Shown: positions 17,666 through 23,499 of the stretch, one piece after another | Numbering within the stretch: position 1 is the first letter of the stretch | Layout of the letters: every line of letters starts with the position of its first letter | Notes under the pieces: model-generated | Databases searched by the model: none | Told to the model about the DNA's origin: nothing | What the model saw: the letters and a program-made list of their open reading frames with translations, nothing else | Position numbers and translations under genes: made by a program | DNA from: Chamaesiphon sp. | Lineage (GTDB): Bacteria; Cyanobacteriota; Cyanobacteriia; Cyanobacteriales; Chamaesiphonaceae | NCBI GenBank assembly: GCA_965246715.1 | Contig: CBDFFH010000015.1 | Span: 160,001 to 224,000 of the forward strand | Length of the DNA stretch: 64,000 nucleotides | Direction of reading: 5' to 3'

Positions 17666-17729
17666 TTGCTGAATTAATGTATGAAAACATCGGTAGGGGC
17701 AATTCATGAATTGCCCCTACCGATGTTTT
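17666..17729. repeat. REP hairpin GTAGGGGCAATTCATGAATTGCCCCTAC inside a partial GGCGTTGCTGAAT-type MITE
   Basis: Same structure as the site occupied by the IS110 at 46108, but empty. Confidence 0.85.
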
Positions 17730-18801: not shown

Positions 18802-19288
18802 ACCGGATTTTTACAGTTAACAGTTCGCAGTTACTCAGTTACCAAGTTTTGGCGGTAACTGTTCGCCAACCTAGATCTTAACCGATAATCGCAGTCTACC
18901 CACTGTTGCATGAGTCTCGATCGACTGGTTAGCTCAGAAGCCAATCGTCAATTTTTAGATTTAAGTTACAAAGTATCCCGATCTACCTAAATGGCTAGTG
19001 AATATCTAAATAATCGCGATCGTCGCCAGTATTCCTAGATATTTATACTTATGGTTAGCACCGCTCCACCACAACCTAAAAAAACATTTAAATCTAACAT
19101 CACTACCAGACAACTGGTTGAGATTTGGTCGAGCCTGCCAAATGACTCCACTGAATCAAATTTAGGTCATGCCTTAGTATCTAAAATATTCGGGCATTTA
19201 GGCTACGGTCACGATCGAGTTAAAATCTCACCTAATATTGCTACTGGTGCTGCGCTAATGCCAGATTATTTAATTTATAACGATCTAA

Positions 19289-20193
19289 GAGGATGTTTGA
19301 AAAGTCAGTTGGTAAAAAAGCTCACTCGGTATAGACTACAGATAGATAATGAGTAGTGCTAAGTGAGCAGAATGAGTAAAGCATATCCTAGTAACCTGAC
19401 CACAGACCAATTTGAATTAATTAGTGGGATGATTCCAGCACCAAAGCCAGGTGGTCGTCCACGAGAGGTGGAGATCGCAGAGGTAATCAACGCAATCTTC
19501 TATCTACTGTGTGAAGGATGTCGTTGGCGAGCGTTACCAGGAGATTTCCCAGCATGGCAGACGGTATATACTTATTTTCGAGACTGGCGCAAGGATGGAA
19601 CATGGGTCAAAATCCACGATCGGTTGAGAGCATGGGTAAGAATAGAACAAGAGCGTCAACCCAGCCCATCAGAGGCTGCAATCGATAGCCAAAGTGTCAA
19701 AAGTGCCGCAATGGTCAGTGAGGCAGTTGGTTATGATGCAGGTAAGCAAATCAAGGGCAGAAAGCGGTTTGTGACAGTAGACACACTCGGCTTAGTCTTA
19801 CGGGTATGGGTGACAGCAGCCAATATCACTGAACGAGATGGTGGCATCCAAGTGTTGAAAAAAGTCAAACAAATGGGTCAATCGGTATCTCGACTGCATA
19901 CAATTTGGGTGGATGGTGGTTTTAGTGGTGAGAATTTTCTGCACTTGGTAATGGATGTCTGTCATTGGCTGGTGCAGGTCGTGCTGCGACCAAAAGAACA
20001 TAAAGGATTTGTGCTATTACCTAAGCGTTGGGTTGTCGAACGTACCTTTGGTTGGTTAATGAACTGTCGGCGATTGACCAGAGATTATGAGAAACTACCT
20101 GAAACATCCGAGACATTTATTTATCTGGTGATGATCCGTATAATGGTGCGGCGTTTAGCATAAAATTTGACCAGAAACTTTTCAAACATCCTC
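19289..20193 (+). mobile_element. IS5-family element (IS1031-like group)
   Basis: 17-bp TIRs GAGGATGTTTGAAAAGT / ACTTTTCAAACATCCTC; TAA duplication at 19286-19288 and 20194-20196. Confidence 0.93.
19363..20163 (+). CDS. IS5-family DDE transposase
   Basis: YPSNLT, IDSQSVK, RWVVERTF motifs. Confidence 0.93.
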   Translation: MSRMSKAYPSNLTTDQFELISGMIPAPKPGGRPREVEIAEVINAIFYLLCEGCRWRALPGDFPAWQTVYTYFRDWRKDGTWVKIHDRLRAWVRIEQERQPSPSEAAIDSQSVKSAAMVSEAVGYDAGKQIKGRKRFVTVDTLGLVLRVWVTAANITERDGGIQVLKKVKQMGQSVSRLHTIWVDGGFSGENFLHLVMDVCHWLVQVVLRPKEHKGFVLLPKRWVVERTFGWLMNCRRLTRDYEKLPETSETFIYLVMIRIMVRRLA

Positions 20194-21444
20194 TAAGCCA
20201 AGCACCTACATTAGTTGTAGAGATTAAAAGACGGCTCCCAATCCTAGCAAATGCTAGCGATGCAGCTTTTGTCAGTACCTGTGAAAGGAACGCTCTCTAT
20301 CGAGACGCAGTTGGACTGAGTACTGCACCCAATAATGGTATTCTCCAATATTTAGATGTCACCAAAGTTAAACCAGAGTATTTGGCTGATTATGGGCTGG
20401 TATTTAATGGTGACTTCTTCCAACTGTGGCGACGGGTTGGTGGTTTGATTATGCCACTGACGACCATCAAGCGCGTAAATAAAACTAGCTTACCTAAATT
20501 ATTAAAAGAACTAGCAAAATGCTTGCAAACTCAGCCAGCAGCTCTAGTAACAGCGATTTGGAATCGTAAAGGTGGCGTGGCGAAAACGACTAATACGATT
20601 AATGTTGCCGCTTGTCTGGCACTGGCAGGTAAAAAAGTATTATTAATCGATCTCGATCCACAAAACGATCTGACTACAGGCATCGGCTTGAAAGCTAACT
20701 TTGCACCAACTTACTTCGAGCAAGCTTATGAGAAAATCCAACTGCAACAACTAAATTTTGCCAAGACAATAATTGCCGCAGCGATTCAAACCAAGAATTA
20801 CCCAACTAGCAACCAACAGACGTTTCAATTATCGCTGCTATCCGCAGATAGCATACGGCTTAATGCTATTAATGATACGCTCTATGCCCACAAGCCACAT
20901 GTAATTTTTAATCAGATTCTCGATCTAGTTCGGCATGAATATGATTATATTTTTATCGATTCTTCACCCAAGCACGATCGCCTGACAGAGTGCTTGTTAT
21001 GTACTACTGAAGCGATCTTGCTGCCGCTAGATTCAGGCTGTAAATCATTAAAACACGCGATCGATCTTTCTCAGCAAGTGATTCCCGGCATTCAAGCCAT
21101 GCGAAACAAAGCTGATGATTTTACCCTCGGCCCGTGGAATCTCGGTTTGTTATTTAGTAATTGCCCGAGCGAGATTGCTATTGGTGCTGGCATCCAAAAA
21201 TCGATCGACAAGGTGATTGAGGATAAAGGCTTTACGGGCAAAAAAGTTAATACTCGGATTGTAAATCTAGCCAAGGTCAAAGATGCAGAATTCAAAGAGA
21301 TGCCCGTGGTTTGTTGGCAGAATTCGCCCGTGACTAAACTCTATCACGAGCTAACTCAAGAAGTATTCCTCGGACATAATTGTATAACTGAATAAATTGT
21401 TACAGCTTATCAAAACATCATAGATCGAATAGAGGAAATTAATT

Positions 21445-21981
21445 ATGGTATCGACTTTAGAGCGTCGCAATACAACTACTCCGATAGGACAAGTGTTGCG
21501 GCTCCCGTGTAAATTCATTCAAGGCACTGCGACGATCGCCCCAGCGATTATCGATACGATCGCCAAAGAATTAGTAAATACAGGTAGAAATGTGTTGCCT
21601 GTGATGGTAGAAGATATCAAAACAGATAAGTATGCTGCTGTATTTAATCAGCAAATTTTATTAGCAGCAAAACAAGCAGGACTTGATTTTGTTTACTGCA
21701 TCGTCGTCGATCGAGAGATGACAGCTCAACTCAAAATCGAAGCTGGCAAAACGATTAAGGTGGATCTCAATCTAGCATCGGAAGCCGAATTAACCGCAGC
21801 ATTTGCAAATATTAAAGTGAATATCGCTGGTTTAACTAAAATCGAACCACAGACGATCGCAAAATCGATCGTTAGCTATCGTACTGGAAATCGGATTAAA
21901 GATCTGAATTTTTTAACAAAGTTAAAATGTGGGATTGGCAAAGCTAAATTACCACTATTAACCGATCGATTACGATTTTAA
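21445..21981 (+). CDS. Hypothetical protein, possible ParB-like N-terminus and helix-hairpin-helix C-terminus
   Basis: GAGG RBS; RNVLPVMV..KYAAV segment; KVDLNLAS...LKCGIGK resembles ComEA-type HhH. Confidence 0.6.
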   Translation: MVSTLERRNTTTPIGQVLRLPCKFIQGTATIAPAIIDTIAKELVNTGRNVLPVMVEDIKTDKYAAVFNQQILLAAKQAGLDFVYCIVVDREMTAQLKIEAGKTIKVDLNLASEAELTAAFANIKVNIAGLTKIEPQTIAKSIVSYRTGNRIKDLNFLTKLKCGIGKAKLPLLTDRLRF

Positions 21982-22301
21982 TTCAAACAGGGTCTACCCT
22001 ATTTCCCGTACATGTGAATTGTGGCTGCCGCGATCGACCGAATCATCGCCCATCAACACTAGCATCGAGTAAAGGCTACAATCGATCGCTCAAAATCTCG
22101 ACTGTAGGCGCAGCCATTGGCGCGCTCGCCAGTTTTTATTTATCCCCACTCAAGCTTTTGGGTATCGCTCAACCAGCGCCGGAGCCTTTGACCATTTTCG
22201 GTACGATCGGCGGCAGTGCGGCGGCTTGGAAGATGAATAAAAAAATGAAATCGATCGACAAAGTATCAGTTAAAAACTTTACTTTCTAAGCTTTTTCTTT
22301 A

Positions 22302-22335
22302 AATAGATACCACCTCGATCGAGGTGGTATCTATT
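22302..22335. repeat. Perfect 34-bp palindrome centred on CGATCG
   Basis: AATAGATACCACCTCGATCGAGGTGGTATCTATT is its own reverse complement. Confidence 0.85.
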
Positions 22336-22479: not shown

Positions 22480-23499
22480 ATGATGTCACTGATTTTCGGC
22501 GCAGCTTCGATAATTACCGCTGGTGCTGGCGTTGTGTTGGGAGCAGATGGTATTTCCAAACTTGATGAAGCGAAGAAAATCGAGCAAGATGCGCGCAAGC
22601 GTTACGAACAAAAACGTGAATCGGTAGCACGATTATTCCACGCAACCCAAGAATTAGCTAAAGAATACGGACAGCTTCAAATCCAAGCGCATTTTCAAAC
22701 GATCGAACGTTTCGTTGCTTTTATCGATCGCATCGATCGCGCCCCCATCCACAATGTATCTAAGTTTTTAGCTGGAGTAGATCGAGTCTCACCACAACAA
22801 ATTCAACAATATCAAGCGATTTCATCTGAACTTAAACCGATCGCGACGAGCTGTTTGACAACAGTAACTATTGGCGATCCAACGGATTGGGCGCAGTTAA
22901 CACCAATGAAATTTTCAGGCAAGGCCGGCACCAGAACTGCGTTCGGCGGGTCGATCGATGCCATGACCCTCGGCTGGCTGGGCGGTGGCTCCTTGGCCGC
23001 AGCAGGCGGGACTGGTATGGCATTTGGATCGGTGCTGTTGGGTGGGTTTATCGCGGCACCAGTGCTGGCGATCGGTGGGTCGATCCTCGGCAGACGCGGT
23101 GGAAAATCGCTAGTAGAGTCCAATCACTATGAAGAGAGTGTTAATGCTGAAATTGCCAAACTTAATGCATTTGAGGATTTTCTCGGACACGTCCAGCGGC
23201 GAATTATCGAGTTAAAGCAGCTGGTTACCAACTTGAACGAGCGCGCGATTCAGAGTTTGACAGCGATCGAATCGCGAAATTTTAGCAACGAACGCGATGC
23301 CGAAAAATTACAACAAGTTACGCTATTAATTAAAACATTAGCGGAAGTAATGAAAACTCCTGTGTTGGAGGATAATGGCAATCGCGGTGGCGCAGTAGCC
23401 GTGCGAGAGCAGCAAGCGACAGCACCATTAAATGCGAAGTATTTACTATTTAGCAAGCCTACAGTTGCGAATGGTGAGCTGTCATTTGCGAGCTGCTAA
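22480..23499 (+). CDS. Coiled-coil protein with glycine-zipper hydrophobic hairpin
   Basis: TLGWLGGGSLAAAGG..G..VLLGG segment between helical regions. Confidence 0.7.
   Translation: MMSLIFGAASIITAGAGVVLGADGISKLDEAKKIEQDARKRYEQKRESVARLFHATQELAKEYGQLQIQAHFQTIERFVAFIDRIDRAPIHNVSKFLAGVDRVSPQQIQQYQAISSELKPIATSCLTTVTIGDPTDWAQLTPMKFSGKAGTRTAFGGSIDAMTLGWLGGGSLAAAGGTGMAFGSVLLGGFIAAPVLAIGGSILGRRGGKSLVESNHYEESVNAEIAKLNAFEDFLGHVQRRIIELKQLVTNLNERAIQSLTAIESRNFSNERDAEKLQQVTLLIKTLAEVMKTPVLEDNGNRGGAVAVREQQATAPLNAKYLLFSKPTVANGELSFASC

Follow-up and report, generated by a model that had tools for sequence, protein, structure and literature searches.

A gene pair in a 64,000-nt stretch of the Chamaesiphon sp. 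genome (the window) encodes, once an insertion sequence (IS) is removed, a putative restriction endonuclease (REase)-like head fused to a ParA ATPase, followed by a degenerate ParB-like protein. We moderately favour the reading that this is an IS-interrupted cyanobacterial effector-ParAB unit, and that its intact form is likely to be an ATP-switched, DNA-cutting module for defence or conflict against plasmids or phages.

An insertion sequence splits the nuclease–ParA gene

The ORF list of the window shows two fragments, 19051-19356 and 20382-21395, on either side of a gene for a 266-residue transposase (19363-20163, plus strand; Pfam DUF4096, 1e-25, and DDE_Tnp_1, 2e-22). The transposase lies in a 905-nt IS5-family element (19289-20193, plus strand), presumably of the IS1031-like subgroup, which has perfect 17-nt terminal inverted repeats and is flanked by a 3-nt TAA target duplication, the left copy read in the sequence at 19286-19288 and the right at 20194-20196 (both plus strand). 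Upstream are codons 1-79 plus one base of the interrupted gene (19051-19288, plus strand), including E35 in the first helix and P71-D72 (19261-19266). Downstream are codons 80-478 (20197-21395, plus strand), which contain the ExK motif (E88, 20220-20222; K90, 20226-20228), QY, YGLVFNGD and, further on, the ParA domain, whose Walker A motif KGGVAKT lies at 20568-20588, with DxDxQ and Walker B in the same piece. Removing the IS and one TAA leaves a frame that is open from 19051, with its first stop after codon 478. An intact 478-residue homologue, P0001, aligns without gaps to both the 5′ piece (residues 1-79, 81% identity) and the 3′ piece (residues 80-478, 91.7%), which argues that the 478-codon reconstruction is not due to chance; among the named homologues of the protein, those closest to it come from Chamaesiphon. 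A public sequencing run, X3, contains an IS-free allele at this pheS locus: a contig of the run joins 19283 to 20194, matching at 88% likeness with 255 letters on its shorter side. The hidden frame proposed in the earlier note, which had been read from the window alone, is thus borne out by the target duplications, the gapless match and the IS-free allele.

The insertion is recent, because the genome holds five full copies of the element at 100% identity and one at 99.8%, and because a perfect TNA duplication flanks five of these six full-length copies. The insertion site lies between D72 of the PD motif and E88 of the ExK motif and parts the two halves of the nuclease site. The nuclease is predicted from the sequence to be dead in this genome, with a headless ParA frame and the partner gene still open. 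A promoter scan returned five sites, fewer than the 8.2 found in shuffled sequence.

A predicted nuclease head on a ParA ATPase

The motifs on which the earlier note had based its domain calls (PD-YLIY, VVEIK, QYL, YGLVFNG and KGGVAKTT) are all present in the sequence. For the ATPase, the 3′ piece matches Pfam AAA_31 (5e-31) and the C-terminal part of a structure model of P0001 (pLDDT 92.7) matches ParA with a Z-score of 28.2, consistent with the ParA domain that had been called. Residue conservation was counted over 82 aligned homologues out of the 120 listed. K204, G205, G206, V207, K209, T210, D233, Q235 and D334 of the ParA domain are present in all 82, as is N202 just before Walker A. N202, V207 within Walker A and Q235, two residues after DxD, are the PriB1/ConB1 signatures; residues of this type are also common in ordinary ParA proteins, so that they are necessary for a PriB1/ConB1 assignment and not diagnostic of it. 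Walker A in this clade mostly reads KGGVAKT (alanine in 73 of 82), rather than KGGVGKT.

In the head, E35, D72, K90, R92 and Y131 are found in all 82 aligned homologues and E88 in 81. Residues 18-192 of the P0001 model resemble the endonuclease domain of the type IIG enzyme BpuSI (Z 10.8, r.m.s.d. 3.1, 142 residues aligned), the one row of the whole-protein structure search on which the fold assignment rests. The head of this clade has no Pfam match of its own, HSDR_N included, and a sequence search of the head alignment against the PDB found nothing. A profile of these heads picks up those of a sister clade (best E 2.7e-7), and HSDR_N_2 matches 10 of the 12 sister-clade heads scanned, three of them above the cut-off. 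Head and ParA core are similarly conserved (mean top-residue frequency 0.64 and 0.65), so that the head is well conserved and not fast-evolving. Taken together, the modelled fold, the motif and the profile bridge to the sister clade let the assignment of a probable REase-like, PD-(D/E)xK-type head stand. The arrangement E..PD..ExK..QY..YG and the fold are shared with HsdR N-terminal and type IIG BpuSI domains; unlike those systems, the operon here includes no helicase, methylase or specificity subunit, and the head is fused to ParA.

The partner is a degenerate ParB with a helix–hairpin–helix domain

The next gene is an open frame of 178 codons (21445-21981, plus strand) encoding a ParB/Srx-fold domain without a GxRR box, followed by a ComEA-type helix–hairpin–helix (HhH) domain. 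In the partner model, the first domain is matched by ParB in Foldseek (E 1.5e-6), by Srx (Z 10.4) and by KorB (Z 10.3, r.m.s.d. 1.7, 73 aligned), and the C-terminal domain by the ComEA HhH (Z 7.9, r.m.s.d. 2.2, 63 aligned). Pfam matches are below the cut-off (HHH_3, E 9e-4; ParB_N, E 0.15). The GERR box of ParB aligns to NxQI in the partner, in a weak alignment (E 0.025), and only 1 of 71 partner members has G..R in the GxRR region. Polar residues are retained, with N49, N68, Q95 and E99 kept in 70-71 of the 71 members. The partner is therefore what the earlier note had supposed, a degenerate ParB with an HhH module, and it is unlikely to be a CTP clamp enzyme. In the sister clade, Rho_N was found in four of the six partners scanned. 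A complex prediction for the ParA domain and the partner scored 0.00 and was counted neither for nor against an interaction.

Some partners are longer, at about 260-270 residues, and carry a duplicated HhH (L007, L010, L012, L025, L031 and L050-L058). The ParB-like domain also recurs, often twice, in proteins of 307-761 residues (P0225, P0228, P0232, P0233, P0237, P0239, P0242 and P0245), one of which has an ADP-ribosyltransferase domain and one Rho_N. The viral_contigs set yielded no relative of the partner.

The pair is an accessory cassette that is repeatedly lost

Of 43 loci fetched, 35 are family members, and in 34 of these the partner lies directly downstream of the ATPase gene, the remaining locus stopping at a contig edge. 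Conversely, a ParA gene lies directly upstream in 27 of the 30 best partner loci of the phylum sample. The two genes are thus co-conserved, as had been anticipated. Within the genus the pair is an accessory cassette: the ATPase gene occurs in 7 of 27 genomes and the partner gene in 10 of 27 (6 of the 15 high-quality ones). The partner has matches in 58 of the 401 genomes of the phylum, only five of them close, and the genes that flank the pair differ from genus to genus. Among 72,556 plasmid records, 7-8 carry the pair; most copies are not on recognised plasmids. On three Nostoc plasmids the pair is accompanied by a ParAB or ParM gene that is annotated separately, and on a 12.6-kb Pseudanabaena plasmid there is no other annotated par gene. 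Nostoc sp. UHCC 0870 has three different REase-ParA/ParB-like pairs on three plasmids (L075, L077 and L078), with a site-specific integrase a few genes away at most in each case. As to parS centromere sites, a repeat scan of the 64-kb window found no repeat array near the pair.

The limits of the cassette were drawn against G026, the closest genome, where the pair is missing: 3,125 nt here (18971-22095) correspond to 103 nt there, with 94-96% identity in the flanks on both sides. G026 keeps a 67-nt scar of the partner gene, matching 21777-21842 (plus strand) with a local score of 72, compared with maxima of 44 in 1,000 random genome stretches and 48 in 1,000 shuffles; the scar is only about 76% identical, whereas the flanks are at 95%. 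This scar favours loss in G026, and we disfavour reading the empty site as a gain in the present genome. In two further public runs, X1 and X2, joints skip 18938-22095, with short sides of just 30 and 22 letters, and the window itself may derive from X1; an empty site is better documented by the G026 genome. Other lesions are a 115-residue, internally deleted ATPase gene beside an intact partner (G014), a 44-residue remnant (G012), both of which may be artefacts because these assemblies are fragmented, and a split ATPase frame (L022). The pair has therefore been lost repeatedly, by the IS here, with a scar in G026 and through the lesions in G014, G012 and L022.

The earlier note had placed the pair in accessory DNA between pheS and xseA. 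Accessory status holds for about 18971-22095 and not beyond: a gene for 339 residues (22480-23499), located between the pair and xseA, lies outside the cassette, since G026 has this gene and no pair. The 339-residue product belongs to no known family, has a glycine-rich hydrophobic middle and gives only sub-threshold NCBIfam matches.

Linkage to defence islands, which the earlier note had put forward for survey, was not detected. PADLOC has no model for the pair; with the ATPase it gave just 36-45-residue P-loop matches to PDC-M28B, and with the partner none. In a neighbour set of 123 proteins, hand-picked from 266 with clear housekeeping genes excluded and one window gene added, eight match PADLOC, mostly through generic domains, and many neighbours of the pair are housekeeping genes. 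Pfam matches of toxin–antitoxin type or to other toxin domains lie near 13 of the 34 loci scanned, a count that has no control set for comparison.

Relation to effector-ParAB and to a core paralog

The earlier note had called the system uncharacterised, a description that no longer applies, because the architecture has been described as effector-ParAB (Li, Burroughs and Aravind; bioRxiv 10.64898/2026.10.19.760177, October 2026). In the parts of that preprint available to us, effector-ParAB comprises operonic ParA and ParB, mostly with a REase N-terminal to ParA; the ParB is likely to be inactive, keeps polar residues and has HhH or Rho-N at its C terminus; and the class is over-represented in multicellular taxa such as cyanobacteria. 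The pair described here matches in each feature compared with that description. It shares the order of a ParA gene and then a ParB-domain gene (at 34 of the 35 loci of the family), a partner with a ParB fold, the REase head N-terminal to ParA (here split by the IS), cyanobacterial hosts, a likely inactive ParB that keeps polar residues, HhH at the ParB C terminus with Rho-N in the sister clade, and the PriB1 asparagine and glutamine and ConB1 Walker A valine. It differs in that this copy is broken by the IS and in its predominant Walker A sequence. Because the class had already been described computationally, this broken member adds little as a discovery.

The immune role of effector-ParAB is a computational prediction in the preprint, whose proposed model has ParB and ParA form a static coat on the invading DNA, backed by the effector as a second line (10.64898/2026.10.19.760177). 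The available preprint text draws no distinction between accessory clades and one that is core to a genus, and a clade of the latter kind is represented in the same genome. About 0.7 kb past the window end, on the minus strand, is a second pair, an HSDR_N_2-ParA protein (456 residues) and a degenerate ParB (319 residues; G000:C15:224680-227037, L080:3681-6038), in which the E..D..ExK..QxxxY set looks intact. Of the 27 genus genomes, 26 have a single copy of this paralog (one split in two pieces), and in the phylum it occurs in 77 of 401. A quick tree was built from 90 ParA domains; it excluded two duplicates and loci whose ParA did not fit the Walker A pattern used (for example KGGVSK variants such as L001 and L006), and it did not resolve deep branches. 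It joins the present clade to the Rho-N clade as its sister (SH-aLRT 99) and sets the core paralog apart in its own clade. In relatives within the core clade, the N-terminal slot holds a REase, nothing or part of a helicase. A genus-core paralog of the same layout in the same genome makes it questionable to assume an immune role for every effector-ParAB unit, and challenges a pure defence reading of the class.

Among other ParA systems, subtype 4 of ParA-HeH includes an experimentally tested Salmonella antiphage system, according to the available preprint text (10.64898/2026.10.19.760177). ParA-HeH likewise combines a ConB1-type ParA with a small DNA-binding partner; its partner is HeH and not ParB-HhH, and its effector is a separate third gene. 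We found no other description of the REase-ParA/ParB architecture in the literature searched, in which subscription journals are thinly covered. The accessible part of 10.1101/2025.10.10.680097 does not mention it under the terms searched, and PMC13043305, considered as a ParA system, was rejected since its subject, in the part available, is HepS.

Possible functions of the intact unit

ATP-bound ParA dimers coat non-specific DNA. By analogy with this behaviour, ATP would lead the intact protein to dimerize on non-specific DNA and so bring two nuclease heads together, and the partner would use its HhH to bind DNA and would gate ParA, restraining it until foreign or abnormal DNA is met. The target of cutting may be the DNA of the invader or the chromosome of the host. 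The operon contains no cognate methylase, and the single methylase among 128 neighbours of 34 loci is separated from the pair by other genes; because none travels with the pair, self-protection would have to come from regulation. If this scheme is true, a nuclease would be switched on by the ATP-driven dimerization of ParA on DNA, and the ATPase cycle known from partition would have a new use.

A conflict module of this kind is supported by the conservation of catalytic and ATP-site residues, the gene pairing, the accessory spread, plasmid carriage, repeated loss, the toxin-type Pfam matches near some loci and the immune role that the preprint predicts. Against defence are the lack of defence-island linkage, a head as conserved as the ParA core, and the absence of any experimental report on a member in the literature searched, again with thin coverage of subscription journals. 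The core paralog, being single-copy in nearly every genome of the genus, is also unlike typical defence genes. Its prevalence in genus and phylum suggests instead that these proteins could form a non-canonical ParA/ParB-like system acting on the cell's own DNA, in polyploid chromosome organization, in the resolving or processing of DNA or in the handling of DNA from transformation, with the present clade a dispensable extra. One strict pattern for a canonical Box II ParB found no match in this genome, cyanobacteria lack classical ParABS according to the accessible part of a review (PMC7766704), and the HhH of the partner resembles ComEA. However, the core paralog belongs to a separate clade in the quick tree, the present clade is patchy, plasmid-borne and repeatedly lost, and the N-terminal slot varies even in the core clade, so that we regard such a nucleoid role as unlikely, although worth keeping in view.

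The patchy spread also fits a selfish, toxin–antitoxin-like addiction module, in which the nuclease–ParA protein would be a stable toxin neutralized by the partner and cells that lose the module or its plasmid would be killed. The pair has the makings of such a module, with two genes, the enzyme first and a small DNA binder second, no methylase and a presence on small plasmids. Moreover, the three partial disruptions (this genome, G014 and L022) all strike the nuclease–ParA gene and leave the partner open, although the sizes of the genes would by themselves give this outcome with a probability of about 39% (0.73 cubed). The majority of copies lie amid chromosomal-type genes, a full ATPase is elaborate for simple addiction and whole-cassette deletions occur, and we consider addiction a rather poor prospect.

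Type I ParABS systems (Soj/Spo0J; P1 ParA and F SopA in type Ia) have a ParB with a GxRR CTPase box, an HTH after ParB-N, and parS sites. The pair shares with them the ParA fold and motifs (Z 28.2), the ParB-N fold and the gene order, and the Pseudanabaena plasmid without another annotated par gene would suit a plasmid-type partition system whose head is a repurposed DNA-binding domain, like the N-terminal HTH of type Ia ParA. By contrast with type I ParABS, the pair has a nuclease-like head that retains its full catalytic set, a partner with HhH in place of HTH and almost without exception no GxRR (G..R in 1 of 71), and an accessory spread; separate partition genes are present on the three Nostoc plasmids and most copies are off recognised plasmids. 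These features make plasmid-type partition highly improbable, and agree with the earlier note in setting housekeeping partition aside.

Besides the defence or conflict module that we favour, the layout may serve two behaviours in one cell, the core clade being a nuclease-armed, CTP-independent stand-in for ParABS and its mobile offshoots conflict weapons that are repeatedly purged; we think this an outside chance. The near-identical strains offer three states at one site (intact, IS-broken and deleted with a scar), which form a natural set for studying cost and protection.

Three further features were seen in these genomes. A 512-nt partial copy of the IS immediately precedes a full copy elsewhere in the genome (G000:C25:66383-67799). 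Perfect palindromes of 46 nt, between converging genes, and of 34 nt lie in the window at 17684-17729 and 22302-22335, respectively. In G026, xseA is interrupted by about 1.45 kb of extra DNA (G026:C3:2790538-2791991; L074:4539-5992).
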